Part shown: one piece after another, positions 1-27,465 of the stretch | How the letters are laid out: each line of letters starts with the position of its first letter | How positions within the stretch are numbered: the stretch's first letter is position 1 | DNA from: Candidatus Heimdallarchaeota archaeon | GTDB taxonomy: Archaea; Asgardarchaeota; Heimdallarchaeia; Heimdallarchaeales; Heimdallarchaeaceae | Length of the DNA: 27,968 nt | NCBI GenBank assembly: GCA_018238545.1 | Contig: JABCTC010000042.1 | Span: forward strand, 1-27,968 | Reading direction: 5' to 3' | The notes under the pieces: model-generated | Databases searched by the model: none | Told to the model about the DNA's origin: nothing | What the model saw: the letters and a program-made list of their open reading frames with translations, nothing else | Translations under genes and position numbers: made by a program

Positions 1-171
1 AGATATAGGGCACCAGGAGGACATAAAAATAGAACTCCAGGACCAGGAACACAAGCAGCATTAAGAGCACTGAAAAGATCAGGAATGAGAATAATAAGAT
101 TAGAAGATGTGACCCCATTGCCTCACAATGGATGCCGCAGAAAGGGTGGCCGTAGAGGCCGTAGAATGTAG
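1..171 (+). CDS. rps11: 30S ribosomal protein uS11, 3' part (truncated by window edge)
   Basis: Manual frame-1 translation: [56 protein letters not shown], the archaeal/eukaryotic uS11 C-terminus. Confidence 0.97.
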
Positions 172-251: not shown

Positions 252-1424
252 ATGATAGATATAAAGCCAAAAGAGTTCACTTGTGAAATCTGTGGAAAGA
301 AGTTTGGAAGAAAGGATAGTCTAGGGAGACACAATAAAACAGTTCACTCAAAATCGCAGAAATACAAATGTGCAGAGTGTAACCGTTTCTTTTCTCGTAA
401 AGATATTCTAGATCGTCATGTCAATGAGGTTCATAAACAAATACGGAAACATGTTTGTGATTTATGTGACGAGAAATTCAAACAGGCAGGAGCCCTAAAA
501 AGACATATTCAAACAATGCACGAAAAAAATACAATCTATGAGTGCCCAGATTGTGATGCCATATTCCCTCGAACAGATTCGTTGAAACGTCACATTGATA
601 CAGTTCATCTCAATCTTCGTCCTCATATTTGCGACGAATGTGGTGCAACTTTTCAATTACCAAGCCATCTAAAGGATCATATAATTTCTATTCATACTAA
701 CCAACGTCAATACATCTGTAATGAATGTGGTTTTGTATTCAAACTCCGTCAGCATCTTAATGATCATATCAAAGTTGTTCATCAGAATCATCGACCTTAT
801 ACTTGTGAAGAATGTGATTCTACCTTTGCTCATGCACGTGGGTTGAAACTTCATATTATTGCTATGCACACTGATGAACTCCCTTATGTCTGCGATAAAT
901 GTAAGAGGGGTTTTGCCGATCCTAGTCATCTGTACAAACATGAACAAGCTGAAGCCTGTTGGTTTACTACTACTACTGCTTACAAATGGGAAGAGCTTTG
1001 TAAAGAGATAGCTGAGATACTGTTAGAAGATAAGAAGTGGAGATGGAAACCTACTATCGAAACACCTGAGTTGGTTGAGCAGACTAGAGTGCAACCTGAG
1101 ATTGTTATCTACAATGATGATGGTACGATGGATTTTATCGATGCTAAGAGGTCTACTTACGCTATTTTCAAGGAGAAGGATCTGGTAGTGTATCCTAAAC
1201 TGGCTAGGAAGGTGGAGTTCTGGTGCCTCTACGGTAAGACCGAGGGGTTGTTTGAGGAGGAAGAGGGAATAGAAGTAAAATCAAGTGAGGAAATTATAAA
1301 AGATCTAAAAGAGAATAGTAAAAAAAATCGTTCAACAACAGATAGAATAGTGATGAATATTATAATGCTCAAGAAAGGTAAAGTGTACAACGGACAACGA
1401 ATTCTTACAAATCAAAAATTATGA
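252..1424 (+). CDS. Tandem C2H2 zinc-finger array (7 C2H2 + 1 C2HC) fused to a C-terminal PD-(D/E)xK-like nuclease domain
   Basis: Eight C-x2-C-x3-F-x5-L-x2-H-x4-H(/C) units at exact 29-aa spacing (aa 11-236). The C-terminus has WEE...QPEIVI...FIDAK. Confidence 0.85.
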   Translation: MIDIKPKEFTCEICGKKFGRKDSLGRHNKTVHSKSQKYKCAECNRFFSRKDILDRHVNEVHKQIRKHVCDLCDEKFKQAGALKRHIQTMHEKNTIYECPDCDAIFPRTDSLKRHIDTVHLNLRPHICDECGATFQLPSHLKDHIISIHTNQRQYICNECGFVFKLRQHLNDHIKVVHQNHRPYTCEECDSTFAHARGLKLHIIAMHTDELPYVCDKCKRGFADPSHLYKHEQAEACWFTTTTAYKWEELCKEIAEILLEDKKWRWKPTIETPELVEQTRVQPEIVIYNDDGTMDFIDAKRSTYAIFKEKDLVVYPKLARKVEFWCLYGKTEGLFEEEEGIEVKSSEEIIKDLKENSKKNRSTTDRIVMNIIMLKKGKVYNGQRILTNQKL

Positions 1425-2484: not shown

Positions 2485-2768
2485 CTTTCACAGGAAGAAC
2501 ATGATAAAGTAACATTTGTAAATGAAAACGTTAGAACCTTTCTGGAAAATCTTCAAACAGAAGAAGATGTGTGGTTATTAGGAGGGGGGAAAAATCATAG
2601 AGGCATTTCATAATGAATCGTTGATTGATGAATACATAATATCGATAGTACCGAGTGTTATAGGACAAGGGATGCCATTATTTAGACAATCAGTAGTTGA
2701 AAGCAATCTAGAATTAGTAAAAAGCCAGCAGTTCGATTCAGGAATTGTAAATTTGTATTATAAGAAAA

Positions 2769-2779
<11 letters not shown>
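2485..2779 (+). pseudogene. 5'-truncated, frameshifted dihydrofolate reductase / RibD C-terminal-domain family gene
   Basis: Translates as ...EDVWLLGGG [frameshift in the ggggggaaaaa run near 2584-2594] KIIEAFHNESLIDEYIISIVPSVIGQGMPLF...DSGIVNLYYKK*. In-frame stop at 2482 and no N-terminal half. Confidence 0.8.
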
Positions 2780-3780
<1,001 letters not shown>

Positions 3781-5768: not shown

Positions 5769-7562
5769 ATGGGTTATGAAGCAATCACCTTTCTATTATT
5801 TGCCGCTTATTTGCCGCTTGTTTGGATTCCAATCCGTTTAGCAATCAAAAAGCAAATAGGATACAAAATCGCTCCCGTAATTCTTGCCCTCTTTTTGATG
5901 GGTGTATGGATAGTTGGTTTTGTTTTTCGAACAATGTTAGTTACAGCTATTGAGCATCTAATGTTTGCTGGAGCGCTTTCTATTCTAGCAGTAATTACTT
6001 TCGAGATTGTTAGAGGTAAAACTAGATTTCTCAATAGGTTCAAGACAAGAAAGCGTTTTACAGGACTTATCATAATTGTTCTTATAATTGTAGTTGGTGG
6101 GAATTCACTATTAGGTATAAACAAAACCATGCAAAGTGCAAGATATTTTGAGAACATGGTTACCTATGATTCTACTAATTTACCATTTGTTATTCTCGAT
6201 GAGGTAAACGAGATAGATAAGAATATACGACTTGTCACAAAAGAATTTGCAATAAGCAAAGCAGAACAAAATAAAGCTATTTTTGGTTCTAATGCTGAAT
6301 TGATGGAAGCTAACGTCATATTTGTTAATAATTCTATTTACTGGTGTATGATTTATGCACCGAAAAGTTCAGCACAATTCTGGACTCCAGGACAATTTAA
6401 CCATGCTTGGGGATTGATACTAGTTGAAGTTAACAATCCAAACGCTGAACCAGTAACAATTAATTTTCCAGAAGGAGAGTTTAATTATGCTGATGGATTA
6501 TGGCGTAACCACAATATTGTTCTTAAAAATTACCGTCGGGATCAAGGGGCAAAATACTGGCGCTCATATCCAGCTTGGACAGGCACTGAATGGGTTTATG
6601 TTGTTACTCGAACTACTAGAAATGTTTATGGAGCATGGTATTCTGATGGAATAGATGTTCTCGATATTACAACAGGTGGTCTAATCACGCATTATACAGC
6701 TGCAGAATTAGACACAACGCCCGACTATATCATGCAAATTTATTCTGAAAGATTGGTTGAAGAAAAATGGATTTGGAATTGGGGTGATAAACGAGATACA
6801 ACAGCAGAAGGTAACATACGTTTCTTCAGTGGTTTTCCATTTTACAGTTCAGATAGGATTGGTTTTTATGGAGACGGAGTTGAAGATATCCGTTATGTGA
6901 AATATCAAAATTCTACTTTAGCCTTCTTTGCTACACATCCTTTTGATTCTTCAGAGACTCTAGCAGGCATAGGTGTAATGACAAAAAGTGATGTTACATT
7001 TTATGACCTTAGAAATCGAGGATTTATTTCAGCTAATACAGCAGCTACACTAGCTGAGGGGCAACTTACTGCACCAAATGAAGGTGGGTATATTGTTCAA
7101 ATGCCAGTGCCATATACACTTAATACTTCTATTGGATTGAGATTGGCTTGGTTCATACCCATCTATTGGCAGAGTGGTACCATACAAAGATTATCTCACG
7201 TCTGTGTTATTGATGCTTTAGACTCAAGTTATGTAGCTATTGCTGAGGCTGAAGGACTATCAGGATCTCAAGTAGTAAAAGAAGCACGATTGCAATTCAA
7301 GTCCTTTTTCACAAGTGAAGTTGTAGAAGACCAATATGAAGTTGCACAAATAGAAGATGTTGGAAGCTATGTGGAAAATGGTGACAGTATCTTTATTTTC
7401 CAATTGAATGATAGTCGAACAATACGTTGTTCCCAAGATTATCTGAATGTAACTCATTGGAATCAGGTTGTTCTAGCAGATATAGGAGACGACATACGAT
7501 ACACATTCACAGAAGATGACGAAGGGATATTTTGGGCCACAGAGTTCTTCATTTTAACTTAA
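5769..7562 (+). CDS. Hypothetical membrane-anchored protein (about 4 N-terminal TM helices plus a large soluble domain)
   Basis: 597-aa ORF with hydrophobic segments in aa 1-115 and a beta-rich, aromatic remainder. Confidence 0.75.
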   Translation: MGYEAITFLLFAAYLPLVWIPIRLAIKKQIGYKIAPVILALFLMGVWIVGFVFRTMLVTAIEHLMFAGALSILAVITFEIVRGKTRFLNRFKTRKRFTGLIIIVLIIVVGGNSLLGINKTMQSARYFENMVTYDSTNLPFVILDEVNEIDKNIRLVTKEFAISKAEQNKAIFGSNAELMEANVIFVNNSIYWCMIYAPKSSAQFWTPGQFNHAWGLILVEVNNPNAEPVTINFPEGEFNYADGLWRNHNIVLKNYRRDQGAKYWRSYPAWTGTEWVYVVTRTTRNVYGAWYSDGIDVLDITTGGLITHYTAAELDTTPDYIMQIYSERLVEEKWIWNWGDKRDTTAEGNIRFFSGFPFYSSDRIGFYGDGVEDIRYVKYQNSTLAFFATHPFDSSETLAGIGVMTKSDVTFYDLRNRGFISANTAATLAEGQLTAPNEGGYIVQMPVPYTLNTSIGLRLAWFIPIYWQSGTIQRLSHVCVIDALDSSYVAIAEAEGLSGSQVVKEARLQFKSFFTSEVVEDQYEVAQIEDVGSYVENGDSIFIFQLNDSRTIRCSQDYLNVTHWNQVVLADIGDDIRYTFTEDDEGIFWATEFFILT

Positions 7563-7674
7563 TCGTTTGAGTTTAACGATTATTTTTTTTCTTTCTTCTT
7601 ATCACTTAACTTTTTTATATTTTAAATCTAAATTAATGCATAGAAAGCGTTAACAAAAAAGGCGTTGAAAATCG

Positions 7675-8697
7675 ATGAACAAGGAAAAGAAGATATTTGA
7701 TTTGGTAAGTCTAGGATCTTGCACTATGGATATGATTGTTTCCGTTGAAGATGTATTAAGAATGGAACTTGTTGATAAGAACCTAGTTGATAAAAAATAT
7801 TTAGCAATTGAGCATTCTTCAAAATTAAATGTTAGCAATATTAAATTTCATCCTGGTGGTTCAGCAGCAAATATCTCCTGTGATCTATCCAGCATTGGTT
7901 TTAATACGGCGTATATAGGAGGAGTTGGAGAGGACTCTAATGGTAAAGCATGTTTAGAAGATATGCAAAACCATGGAGTAGATACTTCGGGTGTTAAAAT
8001 ATTTGGTGAGGATGTAACAGCTGTTTCTGTAATCATACTAACACCGTGGGGTAGAGATAGCTCAATATTAGCCTACAAGGGAGCAAACAACCTCTTCTCT
8101 GAAGAACACATACTAGATGAGATGCTATTATCTACAAGATGTTTTGTTTGGACATCATTAACTTCTGATAATGGAATCAAAGCAATAGAAAAATGCATAA
8201 AACTAGCTAAATCTACAAATGGTTTAATTGTGGGGGCACCATCGACATCTATTATAAAAAATCGTTCAGAGGAAGTAATTAACCTGCTTCAACAAAGTGA
8301 TATAATAAGTTTAAATGAAGAAGAACTTATTGCTCTCACTAATGAAGCAGATATAAAGAAAGGAATGGAGAAATTGTTTGATTTAGGCATTAAGATTGTT
8401 AATATCACATTTGGAAAAGAAGGACAGTGGTTGAGTGATGGAGAGACAATTATAAAGACCAAGCCTCCAAAGGTTTTTGCTGCCGATACAACAGGGGCTG
8501 GTGATGCAACTATCAGTGGTATTATTTATGGTATGTTAGAGGGAAAGAGTCTTGCTGAGACTGCTAGAATAGCTGCTTCATTAAGTGCAATGGAGATTGA
8601 ATCACCAGGTGTGAGAGTAGGAACACCAGTAAAGTATACAGAATTAGAAGAATTTATGAAAAAGCATCCAATTACTCAGACAATAGTAGATTTTTGA
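7675..8697 (+). CDS. PfkB-family carbohydrate/nucleoside kinase
   Basis: PGGSAAN, GGVGEDSNG and DTTGAGD signatures. Confidence 0.92.
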   Translation: MNKEKKIFDLVSLGSCTMDMIVSVEDVLRMELVDKNLVDKKYLAIEHSSKLNVSNIKFHPGGSAANISCDLSSIGFNTAYIGGVGEDSNGKACLEDMQNHGVDTSGVKIFGEDVTAVSVIILTPWGRDSSILAYKGANNLFSEEHILDEMLLSTRCFVWTSLTSDNGIKAIEKCIKLAKSTNGLIVGAPSTSIIKNRSEEVINLLQQSDIISLNEEELIALTNEADIKKGMEKLFDLGIKIVNITFGKEGQWLSDGETIIKTKPPKVFAADTTGAGDATISGIIYGMLEGKSLAETARIAASLSAMEIESPGVRVGTPVKYTELEEFMKKHPITQTIVDF

Positions 8698-8771
8698 ATG
8701 AAAATAAATGCAAAACAATCATAGATAAGGTAAATTTCATCCAAGATTTATTACAACTTCAACCAATGTGT

Positions 8772-9500
8772 TCAAGTTCCAGGGAACAGATTTATCAAAT
8801 CAACAAGTGATGAAATTATAAAATCAGGTTTTTCTAGCTCAAGGCTCGATCGAGTAAAATTTCCAAGGTCTCCTAAGATTCCCACAGTTTTTGTTCCTGC
8901 AGCTTTACCAGCTCTGATATCTTGAGGAAAATCTCCAATCATAGCACACATTGAGGGATCCTTACCTAGTTCCATACAAGCTAGTAATAAAGATTCAGGA
9001 TAAGGTTTGATTTTCTTAACTTTATTTCGTGTAATTATGACATCAAAGTTGTTTAAGAATTCGATATGTTTCTTTACTCTGTTAACAGTCTTGTCACCAG
9101 CATTTGTAACAATAGCTAAATCGTAACCTCGGGAATGAAGAACTTCCAAGACATCATTTACACCATCAAGTGGAACTATGTTTTTAAAAGCCATTGGATC
9201 AGATTTAACATTTCTTAGAACCTTAACGACATCAAAAAGAGACAGTCTTAATGCTCGGGCGGACTTCCACACCATTTGTAGCTTTAATAGTTTTGAACTG
9301 CCTTGTGAGGTTTCCATTACTTGGGTTATCATGTTATCTAGAACCTCTTGCCGTTTTTGTTTATCAAAATCTGGTTTAACCTTGTCAAAAGCTCTTATGA
9401 ATGGGTTCCACCATCTTTCACCAAGATCAATAAGTGTACCATCCAGATCAAAAAGCAGAGTATTCACTTCAGCTATTGGCATCATTTCTAACTGAACCAA
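8772..9500 (-). CDS. HAD-superfamily hydrolase (phosphoglycolate phosphatase-like); start may be near 9485
   Basis: FDLDGTLID, VTN, KPYP and MIGD...DI.AGKAAG motifs. Confidence 0.92.
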   Translation of the reverse strand: MVQLEMMPIAEVNTLLFDLDGTLIDLGERWWNPFIRAFDKVKPDFDKQKRQEVLDNMITQVMETSQGSSKLLKLQMVWKSARALRLSLFDVVKVLRNVKSDPMAFKNIVPLDGVNDVLEVLHSRGYDLAIVTNAGDKTVNRVKKHIEFLNNFDVIITRNKVKKIKPYPESLLLACMELGKDPSMCAMIGDFPQDIRAGKAAGTKTVGILGDLGNFTRSSLELEKPDFIISSLVDLINLFPGT

Positions 9501-9591
9501 AAGTATGATTATAATAATGTTATTAATCTATCAAAAACATCTAATTTGTTAACCAGAAGTCTTTTTAGATAACACTATTTGTGTTGTAACA

Positions 9592-10305
9592 ATGTCAGAT
9601 TCTTTAGATAATCCAAGAAATAGTGAATTAATAAACTGTATTGCAGATGAAAAATCGGACTGTATTGAGTGTGAGTTAAATGGGAAACTACTCTGTATAA
9701 TTGATAAGAAATTTGCAAACAGATTTCTAATAGGGAATATTACGTACCGAATATTAGCACTAACAATATTTGTGATGTCAGGATTATTAATCGGGCACTG
9801 GTGGATGTTGATTTCATATGCAATTATATTGCCTTTAACTTTTTTAGTTATTGAACCACGATTATTGTGCAGCTACTGTCCATTTTATGAAAAAGAGGGT
9901 AAATGTCTAAAATGTTGGGCCCTAAGAGGGATGCCAAAATTATGGAAATATAGACCTGGTCCAGCCACAAAAATTGAGAAAAACGTAATGCTGATTTTTG
10001 GTACGTTTATTGATGTGTTTCCTTTTGTTGGATCAATATGGGGGATTATTCACTTTGCATTAAACACAACCAATAATCTATTTGCGGGTATCAGTTTAAT
10101 AGTTATCACAATTCTTTTCTTAATCGTGGCAACTTACTTCAGTAAGATACTTTTAGGGAACGCCTGTAAAAAATGTGCAAATTTCTCTTGTTCTATGAAC
10201 AAAGTTCCCTATGAAATCGTAAAAATATTCCTAGAAAAAAATCCAAAAATGAAGGAAGCTTGGATTAAAGCAGGTTGGAAGGATGAACGAGCTAATTCTA
10301 AATAA
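9592..10305 (+). CDS. Cys-rich 4-TM hypothetical membrane protein
   Basis: Clusters CIECEL....C, CSYCPFY.....LKC and CKKCANFSCSMN flanking hydrophobic helices. Confidence 0.75.
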   Translation: MSDSLDNPRNSELINCIADEKSDCIECELNGKLLCIIDKKFANRFLIGNITYRILALTIFVMSGLLIGHWWMLISYAIILPLTFLVIEPRLLCSYCPFYEKEGKCLKCWALRGMPKLWKYRPGPATKIEKNVMLIFGTFIDVFPFVGSIWGIIHFALNTTNNLFAGISLIVITILFLIVATYFSKILLGNACKKCANFSCSMNKVPYEIVKIFLEKNPKMKEAWIKAGWKDERANSK

Positions 10306-10372
10306 CAGAACATAAGGAAATCTATTATCCGAAAAACTTTTTTGCTTGCTTTTAAATTTGAATTGTAAAACA

Positions 10373-10993
10373 ATGAAAATCTTTATTCTAATAGGATTAC
10401 AATTAAGTGGTAAATCGTCTCATGGTTATAGACTAAGAGTAGAAGAAGACATACCAATGATAGAAACAGGACATGCGGTCTATCATGAGCTGAAGCGATT
10501 GAAACTAGTAGTAAATCATAAGAATAGTAGTAAAGTCATCATTGGATTGTTAGCCCAAGATCCTACAGCTTTTACACGTACAATACTAGATTATGAAAAA
10601 GAAACGTATGAAGGAGCTAAGTGTCTTATTTTAAATGGTGTAAAATCACCAGCTGAAGTTAAATATGTACAGAACCGTTTTGGTAAAGACAGTGTAACAG
10701 TATTTGGGTTTCATTGTAGTCAACACACACGTTTTAGTAGAGTAACTAATCCAGATAGATTCAAGGTTTCTGGTCAATACCACGAAAAAACCCAAGAAGA
10801 TCAAGATTTAGCAAAATGGGAGAATTTCAAAAGTAGAGATATAAGAGAGATTGGTCTAGGTATAGGAAATGCTCTCGCTTTTGCGAATGAAATAATCAGC
10901 ACAGAGGATAATTTCTGGCCCTATAATTCATTTGAGAGTTCGTATAAACAGTTTCATAAGAATGTTTTTGACAGATTAACAAGGTCTACATAG
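10373..10993 (+). CDS. Archaeal NMP-kinase / dephospho-CoA-kinase-like P-loop protein (UPF0200-like)
   Basis: MKIFILIGLQLSGKS P-loop, GVKSPAEV, RD.REIGLGIG.A.AFA. Confidence 0.75.
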   Translation: MKIFILIGLQLSGKSSHGYRLRVEEDIPMIETGHAVYHELKRLKLVVNHKNSSKVIIGLLAQDPTAFTRTILDYEKETYEGAKCLILNGVKSPAEVKYVQNRFGKDSVTVFGFHCSQHTRFSRVTNPDRFKVSGQYHEKTQEDQDLAKWENFKSRDIREIGLGIGNALAFANEIISTEDNFWPYNSFESSYKQFHKNVFDRLTRST

Positions 10994-11014
10994 CAATACA
11001 ATAATCTGAGAGCA

Positions 11015-14838: not shown

Positions 14839-14877
14839 AAGCACATCATACACATTAAAGCCACGCCGGTGAATTTC

Positions 14878-16323
14878 ATGGTTTCAAAGTTCTTGATGCT
14901 ATTCAAACCGTTTCAACGTTTTACCTTTGAGGTAAAGAAGCCAGCAAGAAAACCTTCTTTTAAAAGAAAGTTAGCTTGGACCTTCGGAATCTTAGCCCTC
15001 TATTTAGCCATGCTAAACATCCCTATTTTCGGTATACCGGAAACAGGAGGAACCGATCCTTTCTTTGCCATGAGGGCAATATTAGCTTCACAAAGAGGGA
15101 GTTTAGCAGAATTAGGTATAGGACCTATTGTAACTGCTGGTTTGATTATGCAACTACTTGTGGGATCACAAATCATTAAAGTGGATTTCACTAATCCTGA
15201 AGAACGTGCTCTCTACACAGGATCACAAAAAATACTTGCCATATTGATGACAGTATTTGAATCTTTAGCATATATTTTTGGTGGAGCTTATGGAGAATTA
15301 ACTTTCCAAGCACAAATTATTGTTTTGTTACAATTAGTTGTTGCAGGTTTTACCATTCTTCTTATGGATGAAGTTATCCAGAAAGGTTATGGACTTGGAA
15401 GCGGTATTAGTTTATTCATCGCTGCAAGTGTTTCATATACAATCTTTGATGGTATGTTCAGTCTATCTCAAGAAACAATTGGAGGCTTTAGTTGGTACAG
15501 AGGTTGTGTTCTTGCATTCTTTCAAGGTCTCTTCAAAGAACCTTTAGATATATTAACACCACTCAGTAGACCTGGTAGAACTCCAGATATAATCGGTTTA
15601 TTGGCAACAATAGTTGTTTTTGCCATGGTCATTTATGTAGACTCTATGAAAATAGAGATACCTGTACAACACAGTCAATATAAAATGCCGGCCAGATATC
15701 CAATCAAATTCCTATATACATCAAACATTCCTGTAATCCTTGTAAGTGCTTTGTTTGCAAATATTTACTTCATTTCAAACCTAATGCACAATTCTTGGAG
15801 CAATATAACAACGGGTTATAAAGGATTCTTGGTCGACTTCTTTGGTAGATGGGATACAATAGAAGGCACGGATCAGCTAGCTCCAGTTTCGGGGCTAGCA
15901 GCTTTTACAACGGCACCGTATGGGCCAGAACAAATTGCTGAGCAACCGTGGCACGCCTTAGTGTATCTACTATTAATGATAGCACTTTGTGGTATCTTCT
16001 CGCGCATCTGGATAGACACGGCAGGAATGAGCTCAAAGAACGTCGCGAAACAACTGTTAGATGCAAATATGCAGATACCTGGGTTTAGGCGCAATCCAAG
16101 AATCGTAGAAAGATATCTAGAAAGGTATATTCCTATAGCAGCTTGGGTTGGAGGTTTCTTCATAGGTGTCCTAGCGGCAGTAGCAGACTTTCTAGGAGCG
16201 CTTGGTACGGGTACGGGAATTCTTTTAACAACGGGTATTCTCCGTCAGTACTATGAAATATTCGCTAGTGAACAAATTAGTGAAACTGTTCCAGCTTTAG
16301 CTGGAATGTTAGGAATAAAATAA
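14878..16323 (+). CDS. secY: Preprotein translocase SecY/Sec61alpha (GTG at 14869 is an alternative start)
   Basis: ELGIGPIVTAGLIMQLL, GLGSGISLFIA, YPIKFLYTSNIPVIL and GTGTGILL. Confidence 0.98.
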   Translation: MVSKFLMLFKPFQRFTFEVKKPARKPSFKRKLAWTFGILALYLAMLNIPIFGIPETGGTDPFFAMRAILASQRGSLAELGIGPIVTAGLIMQLLVGSQIIKVDFTNPEERALYTGSQKILAILMTVFESLAYIFGGAYGELTFQAQIIVLLQLVVAGFTILLMDEVIQKGYGLGSGISLFIAASVSYTIFDGMFSLSQETIGGFSWYRGCVLAFFQGLFKEPLDILTPLSRPGRTPDIIGLLATIVVFAMVIYVDSMKIEIPVQHSQYKMPARYPIKFLYTSNIPVILVSALFANIYFISNLMHNSWSNITTGYKGFLVDFFGRWDTIEGTDQLAPVSGLAAFTTAPYGPEQIAEQPWHALVYLLLMIALCGIFSRIWIDTAGMSSKNVAKQLLDANMQIPGFRRNPRIVERYLERYIPIAAWVGGFFIGVLAAVADFLGALGTGTGILLTTGILRQYYEIFASEQISETVPALAGMLGIK

Positions 16324-21526: not shown

Positions 21527-21916
21527 CTAATATATGTAAGCTAATAGTCTTCCACCTATTCCACGTTCCTTTGCATCCTCGTGAGTTATTACTCCTTCAG
21601 ATGTTGTCATTACAAGGATACCAAAACCTCTTGCAGGTAGGTAGTTTCTTTCTTCATCTTCTAATTCATCATGTTTAACTGGAAATCGAGGTTTGATAAC
21701 ACCGCATTTGTTAATTCTTCCCATCAGTTGTATTTCGAACATTCCTCCACGATGATCTTCAATAAATTCAAGTTCACCAAGATATCCTGCTCTTTGGATT
21801 GTTCTGAAAACGTTCGCAATTATTTTACTAGCGGGTTTAACAGTGACGGTTTTCTTACCTGTTTTTTCAGCATTAAGTATTGCAACTAAAGCATCTGCTA
21901 ATGGATCCATTTGCAT
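21527..21916 (-). CDS. rps8: 30S ribosomal protein uS8
   Basis: [24 protein letters not shown] and GGRLLAYIY. True start at ATG 21916 after a GGAGGT Shine-Dalgarno. Confidence 0.97.
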
Positions 21917-21929
21917 TTTTATTACCTCC

Positions 21930-22097
21930 TTAGCCTCCTCGGCTTCCTGTTTTCTTGAAGCCGATTTTGGAATATATTTCTCTAATACAACGTCTGCAAA
22001 CATACAAACCACCACGTCTAATGATAGCTTGATGTGTTCCACATCGTCTGCATTTTCTTGAGCCTTTTCCATATTTAATTTCTCTTCGTTCTTGCAT
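21930..22097 (-). CDS. rps14: 30S ribosomal protein uS14 (Zn-ribbon type), not in the ORF track
   Basis: Manual translation [55 protein letters not shown]. Confidence 0.96.
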
Positions 22098-22673: not shown

Positions 22674-23428
22674 TTCTTATCACCTTTATCACCAGCAATT
22701 GTTACACTTGGAGCATCATTGCCCACAATGAAAATATATCTGAACAGTGTAACGAAAATCTCACCATCAGGAGTTCTTATGGTAGCTGTTTTGGTTATTT
22801 GTTTTCCATGAGAACTGACTTCTTCAATGGTTCCATGTTTACCCATCCACCTTCCACTAGTCACAATACCATAATTACCGATTTTCAATTCGTACTTTTC
22901 TAAAATCTTTTGATCTGGTAAAGATATCTTAACTGTGTCATGTGTATGGTAAGGAACACTATCACTTTCTTTTTTCTGCAAGATTATGTTTCTACCATCA
23001 TGAAGATTTAATTGTGTTAAACCTCCTTTGAGTGTGGTTTTATTTTTAATCTGGCAGAGTTTAACTTTTGTCTCATCACCCTTAATTGGGATTGTCCTTA
23101 GACCTTTCTTTGGAGTATATATTAGTCTATAATGCTCTTTTATTTTGGGGAAGGAAACAACATCCATAAAACCTAGAGGGTATTTTCTGTTTGTTTTTGT
23201 TCTTCCATCTACGAGAACATTTCGTTCAACCAATATACGTTTAACTTCACTCATATTTCGGGCTACTTGGAACATATCACGGAGCATAATAGCCATCGGG
23301 ATGCAGTCATGTGCAGCATGAGGACCAGGGGAGGGTCTAACTGTATAAGTATTAGCTTTCTTTTCAATTGGTATATGTTTTGAAACAACAAATCTCTTTA
23401 AATGTCGTTTTCCACCGCCTTTTGTCAT
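22670..23428 (-). CDS. rps4e: 30S ribosomal protein eS4
   Basis: KRHLKR, RPSPGPH, VDGR......PLGFMDV and QLNLHDGRNI. Confidence 0.97.
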   Translation of the reverse strand: MTKGGGKRHLKRFVVSKHIPIEKKANTYTVRPSPGPHAAHDCIPMAIMLRDMFQVARNMSEVKRILVERNVLVDGRTKTNRKYPLGFMDVVSFPKIKEHYRLIYTPKKGLRTIPIKGDETKVKLCQIKNKTTLKGGLTQLNLHDGRNIILQKKESDSVPYHTHDTVKISLPDQKILEKYELKIGNYGIVTSGRWMGKHGTIEEVSSHGKQITKTATIRTPDGEIFVTLFRYIFIVGNDAPSVTIAGDKGDKK

Positions 23429-24201
23429 GATGATTCCTCCTTTTCATCTGTTTTCTTAGAAAGTAAATCTTCTGCGTTAGTTCTCATAGTTTTTGCTGTA
23501 CCAGAACCGATACCAGGCACTTTTGAAAGTTCTTCAGGGGTCGCTTTAGCAATCTTATCAACGGTATCAAAACCATTTTCTTTGAGAAGCATTGCGGTTT
23601 TAGCACCTACACCCTTAATCATAGATACGTCGATGTCAAGAACTTTAACCTCTTTCTTGGGAGTTGCTTTTACAACCTCTTCAGTAACAACAGCTTCATC
23701 AAGATCTTCAAATTCTTCAAAAACATCCTCATCAAGATCTTCATCTTCATCTTCGATATCGGTTTCTTCTAAAGGCTCCTCGAATTCATCAAATAAATCT
23801 TCAGTTAACTCTTCTTCAGTGATTTCTTTTTTAGAACGTCTCTTAATTATATCGCGTCTCTTCTTATCACGCAAATTCAGAGAAGTAATTAGGATGTTGC
23901 TTGGATGAACAGGAAAACTAGTGATTGTACCATCAGCTTTCTCCTTACTATGTCCTTCAACATGAACTGAATATTTCTGAGGTAAAACACGGAGTACTTT
24001 ACCTTTAATTTCTTGATCTTCAGATTTAGCTCTGAAAACTATCACTTTATCATCTTTATGTACGGGAAGACGTCGAATGCCATATTTAGCTCTCAACTCG
24101 CGTGAGAGAAGAGCTGTCATCTGGCGATTGCGGAGATGTAAAGGAGCATTATAATACCTCTTACGTTGTTTACGAGGTTGTTTTGTTTTTGTATACTTCA
24201 T
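23425..24201 (-). CDS. rpl24: 50S ribosomal protein uL24 fused to an acidic linker and C-terminal (HhH)2 domain
   Basis: QPRKQRK..YNAPLH, LSRELR.KYGIR and PVHPSN, followed by IKGVGAKTA..L...GF.T...IA.A..EELS.VPGIG..TA. Confidence 0.93.
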   Translation of the reverse strand: MKYTKTKQPRKQRKRYYNAPLHLRNRQMTALLSRELRAKYGIRRLPVHKDDKVIVFRAKSEDQEIKGKVLRVLPQKYSVHVEGHSKEKADGTITSFPVHPSNILITSLNLRDKKRRDIIKRRSKKEITEEELTEDLFDEFEEPLEETDIEDEDEDLDEDVFEEFEDLDEAVVTEEVVKATPKKEVKVLDIDVSMIKGVGAKTAMLLKENGFDTVDKIAKATPEELSKVPGIGSGTAKTMRTNAEDLLSKKTDEKEESS

Positions 24202-26382: not shown

Positions 26383-27465
26383 TCATTCTTCTAAGGAATT
26401 TTTTCTTTTGAAAGTATTGAATTTTTTCTTTATTTTTCTAATCAGTTTTTTATGCAAAGTTGTTTTTCCATAATATCGTATCATGATTTTTTCAATTACA
26501 GATAAATATCGCAAACACGCTATTCCTAATTCAATTAGAAACATCATAAACTCCAAATCAGAAGAAATTGTTTCAAAACTTCTTGACATATATTTTTGAA
26601 TGAAACTTTGAACTTCAGGTATCTGAGGGAGATATTTATCAATTACTAGAACTAGCTTTTTGTTCGCATTGGCATATATATGGCCAAAGTTTTTCTTTAA
26701 TTCTCCAATTTCAGGTAAATAATAACCATGAGCTATTTCATTCCTTATATTCAAAATTACTCCAAAAGCCATTTTATCTTCGTACCATTTTCTATCTCTT
26801 ATTTTTAATATCTCATCTATAATTGTTGGTAATCTAGTTTCACGATCTGTTACCAATAACAAATTCTTAATCCTCTCATTCAATTTGTTACTTTTATTAT
26901 AATTTTAAAAAATACGGAATAGATCAATCTTTTTAGAAACGGAATCTGTGATAAACATGAACAAATCTTGAACATATGCATCCATAAAAGCATACAATCT
27001 CAGAATGAAATAAGACACTAAATGAGACAATAATTTTGATTCCTTAATTCCCATCCTTGATAAAAGATTTGTCTCCTCTGATTTATTATTGTCATCTAAT
27101 GTCATCTTTAGTAGCTTGATTAGTTCTTCTTTAGGAATTAATTGTAATTGTGACACCCAATATTCTTCTTTTTTCTCAGGTGTTTTTTCTAGTTCTTTCA
27201 GTATTTTTTCTCTTAATACAAGAATGTTATCTTTTATCAATAGCTCTTTTTTGATTGGTTCTAAATTAATCACAAAAACGATCAGGAAATTTATTAAAGA
27301 GACAAGTCCAATTAGTTCGTTAAAGTTTTTATGAAATTTTTCACCAAATTTAGATTCAAACAAATCTAACTGGTTTTCAAAAAGACTTTCTTCTATTTTC
27401 TCAAATTTATCAATACAATTATTGATTACTTTGGTAATATCTTCCTCTGAAACTGAAGTCATCAA
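26383..27465 (-). pseudogene. HEPN-domain protein (about 360 codons) interrupted by one in-frame TAA at 26905-26907
   Basis: ORFs 26905-27465 and 26383-26883 are in the same frame with 7 sense codons between them. HEPN-like helix YFILRLYAFMDAYVQDL lies upstream and RNEIAH (RxxxxH) downstream. Confidence 0.65.

Follow-up and report, generated by a model that had tools for sequence, protein, structure and literature searches.

The stretch of DNA analysed here, which we call the window, is an entire contig (C30) of 27,968 nucleotides from a member of the Heimdallarchaeota (AB_125 genus), and it begins inside rps11, the gene for ribosomal protein uS11. Positions 1–171 (+) hold the 3′ end of this gene (PF00411 at 31–156, TAG stop at 169–171), which is also the predicted target discussed below. 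The stretch between it and the next gene (172–251, +) contains a T-rich segment just past the stop, a TATA-like motif (TTTATAT, 215–221) and GAAGGT before the ATG, elements that may act as terminator and promoter. The gene that follows (252–1424, +) encodes a 390-aa protein with an array of eight zinc fingers (F1–F8; aa 9–236, nucleotides 276–959, +) joined to a C-terminal domain that is predicted to adopt the PD-(D/E)xK fold (aa 237–390, nucleotides 960–1421, +). We refer to it as the nuclease; it is under purifying selection, with dN/dS values of 0.02–0.22 relative to its orthologues. Between the nuclease and a pair of metallo-beta-lactamase and thioesterase genes lies a variable islet, which in the window starts with a YaaC-like gene (1490–2407, +; PF14175, E = 9e-20) and continues with Imm5-like and AAA ATPase genes (2769–3765, −) that are probably passengers. 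The genes separating nuclease from thioesterase vary freely among relatives. The YaaC-like gene also lies 3′ of the nuclease in G024 and G034, two genomes whose fingers F1–F4 group with those of the window. By eye, a frameshifted fragment resembling the C-terminal part of a RibD/dihydrofolate reductase-like protein can be seen at ~2500–2777 (+), and the islet of L031 contains an intact-looking homologue of it.

Linkage of the nuclease to rps11, which the preliminary description of this DNA had proposed to check, is genuine: each of the 27 full-length orthologues for which context was available comes directly after rps11 on the same strand, and because that order recurs in 27 assemblies a chimeric contig can be ruled out. 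Of 23 other genomes in the genus, 19 contain a match to the C-terminal domain, 18 of these as a close orthologue; in 6 further members of the family, including two whose genomes are single contigs, no match was seen. Such frequent presence among congeners is high for a purely selfish gene, and may point to some benefit for the host. Five rps11 loci had no finger gene within the sequence covered, and at one of them, L054, the thioesterase gene directly follows rps11, as expected of an empty allele. Among the 28 filled loci, 15 carry a short finger ORF between rps11 and the nuclease and 13 do not; the window belongs to the latter, with no such ORF in 172–251. This short ORF is the only recurrent partner across the related loci, where we found neither a cognate methyltransferase nor a conserved downstream neighbour. 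The 5′ part of rps11 was found nowhere else in the assembly, and many related contigs likewise stop within ~1 kb upstream of rps11. In this genus the N-terminal extension encoded by rps11 is long, rich in Lys and Glu, of low complexity and variable in length (the ORFs measure 141–291 aa), which may be what breaks the assemblies.

The finger array is highly regular. First cysteines fall at aa 11, 40, 69, 98, 127, 156, 185 and 214, an exact 29-aa period, and Pfam zf-C2H2 matches the protein in eight stretches (E = 8e-39), bearing out the eight-finger periodicity reported in the preliminary description; the full-length structure model also predicts eight beta-beta-alpha units. The label given there, eight Kruppel-type C2H2 fingers, can be kept only in part. 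F1–F7 do satisfy the C-x2-4-C-x12-H-x3-5-H repeat of classical C2H2 arrays, whereas F8 terminates in a cysteine (C-x2-C-x12-H-x5-C) and is therefore a C2HC finger, whose ligands C214, C217, H230 and C236 are invariant among 33 close homologues. Classical arrays are joined by TGEKP linkers and have a 28-aa period; neither feature is present here, and the linkers (such as LNLRP and TDELP) and HX4H fingers of the nuclease are only loosely Kruppel-like. The paralogues P0033–P0036 and L049, in contrast, do carry TGE[KR]P linkers. From position −1 to +6, the recognition helices read RKDSLGR, RKDILDR, QAGALKR and RTDSLKR for F1–F4, and LPSHLKD, LRQHLND, HARGLKL and DPSHLYK for F5–F8.

For the C-terminal ~150 aa, a Pfam search and a PDB sequence search both gave no match. 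AlphaFold, supplied with an alignment of 41 homologues, predicted this domain with a mean pLDDT of 91 and a pTM of 0.84, and the order of the modelled elements fits the alpha-beta-beta-beta-alpha-beta core of the PD-(D/E)xK superfamily. E247 lies on helix 1, P282-E283 just before strand 2, D297-x-K299 on strand 3 and K309-D310-x3-Y314 on the helix following strand 3. VIA-align placed AF1548 first (Z 8.5, rmsd 3.0 over 107 residues, a moderate Z), and nearly all of its best 50 rows belong to the same superfamily, including Can1/Can2, BspD6I (Z 7.3 and 6.7) and FokI (Z 6.3, rmsd 4.0 over 111 residues). Foldseek agrees on a restriction fold, with the R2 retrotransposon endonuclease as its best match (9dou, E 2.7e-4). 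The Z values are moderate but the match list is consistent, and together with the model it supports the restriction-endonuclease fold that had been proposed for this domain. In the ESM Atlas, unnamed phage clusters (0.91–0.92) stood above PD-(D/E)xK families (0.88–0.89), which we treat as a lead only; a search of viral contigs with a single protein as query, which detects close relatives only, returned no relative of the nuclease.

The residues singled out earlier as candidate catalytic positions are where they were said to be (E247, P282, E283, D297, A298 and K299, checked in the translation), and conservation agrees with such a role. Across the 41 homologues, which are only ~30% identical, P282 and K299 are kept in all 41 and E247 in 36; position 283 is acidic in all (E in 26, D in 15), as is position 297 (D in 37, E in 4). 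The preliminary description had flagged the PE in place of PD as non-canonical. The glutamate is indeed there, but because E and D alternate at position 283 we read PE as a family variant of PD. In other proteins, of which the named ones are Asgard or other archaeal, the domain has different fusion partners: TGEKP-linked C2H2 arrays, other cysteine-rich repeats or repeats of helix-turn-helix-like type (as judged by eye); a nuclease domain combined with interchangeable DNA-binding repeats is typical of homing endonucleases. At L025, L026, L027 and L029 (in G018, G032, G034 and G024) the domain is joined to arrays built from a different cysteine-rich repeat, and at least two of these share a locus near a small GTPase gene. 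More distant versions stand behind other repeat types at L028 and L030 (G038:C57 and G024:C64) and in P0060, P0066, P0067, P0074 and P0075, in Asgard and MSBL1 archaea; the family is a broad one.

To predict what the array binds, we used a simple C2H2 recognition code, fixed before the first site scan and kept unchanged thereafter. Because simple codes depend on context (PMC4330361), single finger–base assignments are uncertain and it is the pattern across genomes that we take as evidence. When 17,954 positions covering the window's first 9 kb were scored, the best lay within rps11 itself, at 113–136 (−), where GGC ATC CAT TGT GAG GCA ATG GGG (F8 to F1) is the antisense of codons T-P-L-P-H-N-G-C-R, the Asn codon being Asn or Asp across relatives. 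This predicted recognition site gives a location to the potential ~24-bp target of the preliminary description. It ranks 6th of 7.26 million positions genome-wide, and only 0.03% of finger-order permutations score as high on it. Across the family the same register recurs: for 17 of 27 arrays the genome's own rps11 site came out on top of the 9,000–30,000 positions scanned for each, and for 22 of 27 once the middle base of every triplet was masked. An earlier reading by eye on the rps11 sense strand (a GGC CGT AGA repeat) fitted poorly at F4 and F1, and the scan gave the antisense register instead. Binding to rps11 mRNA in the manner of TFIIIA is unlikely because the matched strand is antisense.

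In this register the arrays are predicted to read their triplets antiparallel through helix positions −1, 3 and 6, and each finger is phased in the same way against the reading frame: +3 faces a codon wobble base, −1 faces position 2 of the same codon and +6 faces position 1 of the next. The outer contacts are nearly invariant and canonical: R−1 stands on G in 81/81 cases (F1, F2, F4), R+6 on G in 81/81 (F1, F3, F4) and D−1 on C in 26/26 (F8), and Q−1 pairs with A. The helix residue that varies most among orthologues is +3, the one facing a base that is free to change without altering uS11.

At these wobble bases, the nucleases and the short finger proteins show opposite patterns. Match counts refer to decodable residues (G, I, M, L and Y at +3 of the nucleases cannot be decoded), and expectations come from shuffling sites among loci, with 5000 permutations for the nuclease arrays. 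L047 (G026:C56), whose array is close to that of L042, was left out of these statistics since its rps11 end and its nuclease frame both look interrupted. Against their own allele, F1–F4 of the nucleases make 16 matches out of 82 where 30.9 ± 3.6 are expected, and none of the 5000 permutations was as low: N at +3 is over A in 0/15 cases, H over G in 0/12 and S over C or T in 1/22. R+6 of F8, which prefers G, sits over a resident T in 14/14. The predicted self-avoidance survives collapsing to 12 lineages (median P 0.012, maximum 0.035). It does not extend to the middle base in F5–F8, where the His+3 of F6 and F8 is mostly over A. For the window's nuclease, the code predicts mismatches with the resident allele at F1, at F4 and at the first base of F2, and none of the sampled alleles is a perfect predicted target for it.

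The short proteins (125–160 aa, with F1–F4 or F1–F5 only and their zinc ligands intact) match their own allele without exception: 57/57 at +3 of F1–F4, where 20.5 are expected, and 7/7 at +3 of F5. The individual pairs are N–A 19/19, H–G 12/12, K–G 4/4, A–T 6/6 and S–C/T 16/16. Collapsed to 7 lineages, the count is 26.7/26.7 versus 9.1 expected (P ~1e-13), and for 13 of 15 short proteins the own allele is first or tied first among 29. They evolve under constraint (dN/dS 0.09–0.19, with dS up to near 2), and the F4 residue changes with the site base, S accompanying T in L033 and N accompanying A in L035. Monophyly of these ~7 lineages is neither shown nor rejected (5 changes on the tree, AU p 0.24). 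We also considered whether the short protein shields the locus from the cassette's own nuclease, but this found no support: the mean rank of the own allele is 21 with a short protein and 23 without.

A second case comes from a distant eight-finger paralogue, L049 (L049:6371-7863, G024:C175), which has a 28-aa period and lies tail to tail with a ferredoxin-like gene. The best of ~29,000 positions for this array falls on the coding strand of that gene, at codons C-L-E-C-A-T-C-R, in a register different from that of the rps11 arrays: here it is +6 that faces the wobble base. The code fits at 14 of the 16 fixed positions; one of the others is a Tyr that cannot be decoded, and the single mismatch fits the Gly codon found at the same place in G027. 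At a like position, L175 (G027:C170) has only a broken nuclease remnant. For the paralogues L174, L183 and L050 no clear adjacent target was found, their contigs being cut or their best sites not distinctive.

The site and the fingers that read its variable bases also have a history of their own. We took SecY alone as the host tree, leaving out EF-2 because two paralogues were mixed, and built the F1–F4 tree with helix positions omitted. The latter rejects two host clades (AU p 0.017 and 7e-6), and its grouping of the window's genome (G000) with G024 and G034 conflicts both with SecY (rejected at 2e-44) and with the nuclease domain (4e-5), whose own tree retains the host clade containing the window's genome. 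Pairwise comparisons locate the exchanged segment. G035 and G023 have SecY genes that are 84% identical, yet a tract of ~1.1 kb, running from −45 to about +1060 as counted from the Thr codon of the site, contains just 5 differences; it takes in the site, the short ORF and roughly the first five fingers, and identity in its flanks is much lower. The window and G031 present the converse: SecY is 94% identical and the upstream sequence 99%, the site 76% and F1–F4 49–60%, and identity is back to 80–91% from about F5 into the nuclease domain. Alignments of this kind show the site and F1–F4 to have been exchanged between species as conversion tracts. In addition, 14 related loci have a second rps11 end 1.65–6.8 kb downstream; the window has none. 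The longest of these displaced ends start at +29, +29, +30, +31 and +33 from the Thr codon (position 112 in the window), that is, 5–9 bp outside the site, at the end that would face the nuclease domain, and none of them includes the site. From these relatives we place a putative cut zone at 141–143 in the window, 5–7 bp past the F8 end of the site.

We consider it probable that the nuclease is a free-standing homing endonuclease that cuts non-self rps11 alleles. Its gene lies outside introns and inteins and near a long predicted target in a conserved gene; there are filled and empty alleles (L054), lateral spread seen in the tree conflicts, and co-conversion of the target region. Of the two options raised in the preliminary description, homing is well supported and a defence nuclease poorly so, because the predicted target is a host core gene and no PADLOC model matches. 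In the mechanism that we propose, the eight fingers would bind 24 bp on the rps11 antisense strand, with helix positions −1 and +6 fixing the non-synonymous bases of the T-P-L-P-H-[N/D]-G-C-R codons and +3 reading the wobble bases. Because the position-3 residues of F1–F4 disfavour the resident allele, the enzyme would be expected to leave its own chromosome intact and to cleave synonymous variants in related strains or species. The C-terminal domain, if its predicted fold is a guide, would cut or nick ~5–7 bp downstream of the site, as the displaced ends suggest, and repair on the donor would copy the donor's rps11 end, site and fingers. Should the right end resolve within the homologous F5–F8/nuclease part of a resident copy, the outcome would be a swap of specificity; should it resolve illegitimately, the old rps11 end would be pushed downstream together with cargo. 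Both the conversion tracts and the displaced ends would then be products of homing. At about half of the loci, the window's not among them, a nuclease-free protein of four or five fingers may occupy the resident site and block incoming nucleases. Granted homing, we lean towards this guard role against foreign nucleases, with autoregulation as the main alternative. The full two-protein picture, in which the nuclease attacks non-self synonymous alleles, the finger-only protein shields its own, and swaps of site and finger module displace older versions, has in our estimation about an even chance of being right.

One competitor concerns the short ORFs alone: they could be relics of abortive homing (5′ halves left by nucleases that once targeted the resident allele and had to shed the nuclease part) or autoregulators of the cassette rather than guards, which we regard as a realistic if somewhat less favoured reading. 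They do correspond to F1–F4 or F1–F5 of a nuclease and sit where a newly copied 5′ part would land; the tree allows several origins, and 13 of 28 loci, including the window's, manage without one. Mere debris should not, however, retain its zinc ligands at the dN/dS values given above up to dS near 2, nor should its residues follow base changes in the site within a lineage, as F4 does in L033 and L035. This constraint and tracking exclude passive decay, and leave room for a regulatory role or an abortive-homing origin.

The remaining alternatives concern the nuclease itself. One is a barrier maintained by the host, in which the nuclease uses a universal marker gene to destroy DNA coming in from related species, as marker exclusion or kin discrimination, and conversion is a by-product. 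Near fixation in the genus (19 of 23), strong purifying selection and self-avoidance would all suit a barrier, and its biochemistry would be the same as for homing. We think it unlikely, since close relatives have had their specificity modules replaced and distant ones have theirs in common, the gene adjoins its own target and the displaced ends record insertion events; module exchange, target adjacency and displaced ends are expected of homing and unneeded for a barrier, and a single 24-bp site would protect little else. Very unlikely, in our judgement, is a catalytically dead or weak protein that uses a PD-(D/E)xK fold in another role, binding DNA to regulate rps11 or the downstream islet. 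The predicted site does lie ~80–100 bp upstream of the TATA-like motif, PE replaces PD, and the domain belongs to no Pfam nuclease family, but a regulator should match its own genome and the nuclease arrays avoid their own allele, K299 and the acids at 283 and 297 are each kept 41/41 in a family only ~30% identical, and the displaced ends start beside the site, on the nuclease side. An antiviral or antiplasmid nuclease at the edge of a defence islet, with an incidental rps11 match, would account for the YaaC-like, Imm5-like and AAA genes among the variable neighbours and for a fold that structure searches find in many defence effectors, yet it is highly improbable given that the match recurs in one register across 27 arrays and tracks synonymous changes, that paralogue L049 matches its own neighbouring host gene, and that no PADLOC 2.0 model matched at E 0.01 (2023 library, from which a defence system may well be absent).

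By analogy, a homing nuclease of this kind would work like the free-standing endonucleases of T4 and the fungal mORFs and would belong to neither protein family. In T4-like phages, the Seg and Mob enzymes bring about intronless homing and marker exclusion (PMC2988022). As in that case, an intergenic endonuclease gene lies beside a conserved target gene, the relative's allele would be cleaved and flanking sequence is co-converted; unlike those phage GIY-YIG or HNH enzymes, ours is an archaeal chromosomal gene with a PD-(D/E)xK domain, its modular C2H2 reader can be decoded finger by finger and is swapped among resident copies, and many loci encode in addition a finger protein that matches the self allele. 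The mORF elements of fungal mitochondria, known from Allomyces atp6 and from Glomus atp6, atp9, cox2 and nad3, supply a replacement 3′ end for the target gene and leave the old end downstream (PMC3630166), as at the 14 loci here; they encode LAGLIDADG or GIY-YIG proteins, whereas the nuclease has no such Pfam match and a different predicted fold, so that it is not a member, and the mORF paper describes neither a finger array nor a companion protein. With engineered zinc-finger nucleases the protein shares the order of C2H2 array and nuclease, the fold class of FokI and a cleavage position predicted to fall a few bases outside the last finger; it differs in being natural, in its eight HX4H fingers and in having a C2HC finger joined directly to the nuclease.

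R2 elements use zinc fingers to target a conserved site in the gene for a ribosomal component, and in their protein a cysteine knuckle precedes the nuclease. Their endonuclease (RLE) is the best Foldseek match to our domain; unlike R2, which targets 28S rDNA, the present system has no reverse transcriptase or RNA intermediate. PRDM9 offers an analogy only: there too a C2H2 array directs breaks and conversion, and its DNA-contact residues change fast, but PRDM9 is a methyltransferase, acts by recruiting SPO11 and erodes its own sites. Asgard Tn7 elements have TniQ proteins with tandem C2H2 fingers that apparently select conserved chromosomal targets (bioRxiv 10.1101/2025.07.27.667033); in contrast to the nuclease, TniQ recruits a transposase and has no fused nuclease, and we are aware of no code-level target match or self/non-self pattern described for it. 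Our literature searches, with most subscription papers beyond reach, found no published description of this family of C2H2-array nucleases.

If this reading is right, the nuclease would be a naturally occurring equivalent of engineered zinc-finger nucleases, its target readable from the protein sequence, and the guard role, if confirmed, would bring it close to a new kind of system. The comparative evidence suggests that Asgard archaea, which among prokaryotes are closest to eukaryotes, use the canonical C2H2 code, and the presence of long Asgard finger arrays in genetic conflict would make a mobile-element origin of eukaryotic arrays a testable idea. An arms race would be under way at synonymous sites of a ribosomal protein gene. 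DNA has been exchanged between Heimdall species whose SecY genes are only 75–84% identical, and in the AB_125 genus the 3′ end of rps11 departs from the host tree, which calls for caution. The 27 nuclease arrays, 15 short proteins and 29 alleles provide a full matrix of binding and cutting predictions, and the nuclease, being small (390 aa) and offering a non-FokI domain together with natural pairs of finger and triplet, may serve as a tool.

Some observations concern the rest of the window and its counterparts in relatives. The window's secY is at 14869–16323, and several congeners (G019, G029, G030 and G036) have a second, divergent SecY-like gene at ~50% identity. In G020, spc-cluster ribosomal protein genes come directly after the thioesterase gene (L045:3391 onward, G020:C148), and the block matching window positions 5769–11000 is absent or elsewhere. 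Two adjacent ORFs in a low-GC stretch at 26383–27465 (−) have weak RiboL-PSP-HEPN matches (E 0.014 and 0.021) and are possibly one split HEPN gene. Ribosomal proteins with additions are encoded at 21527–22072 and 23425–24201 (−): the uS8 ORF may have a long extension at its N terminus, and uL24 has an acidic linker and a C-terminal helix-hairpin-helix-like part; HHH domains also occur in rps4 of relatives.
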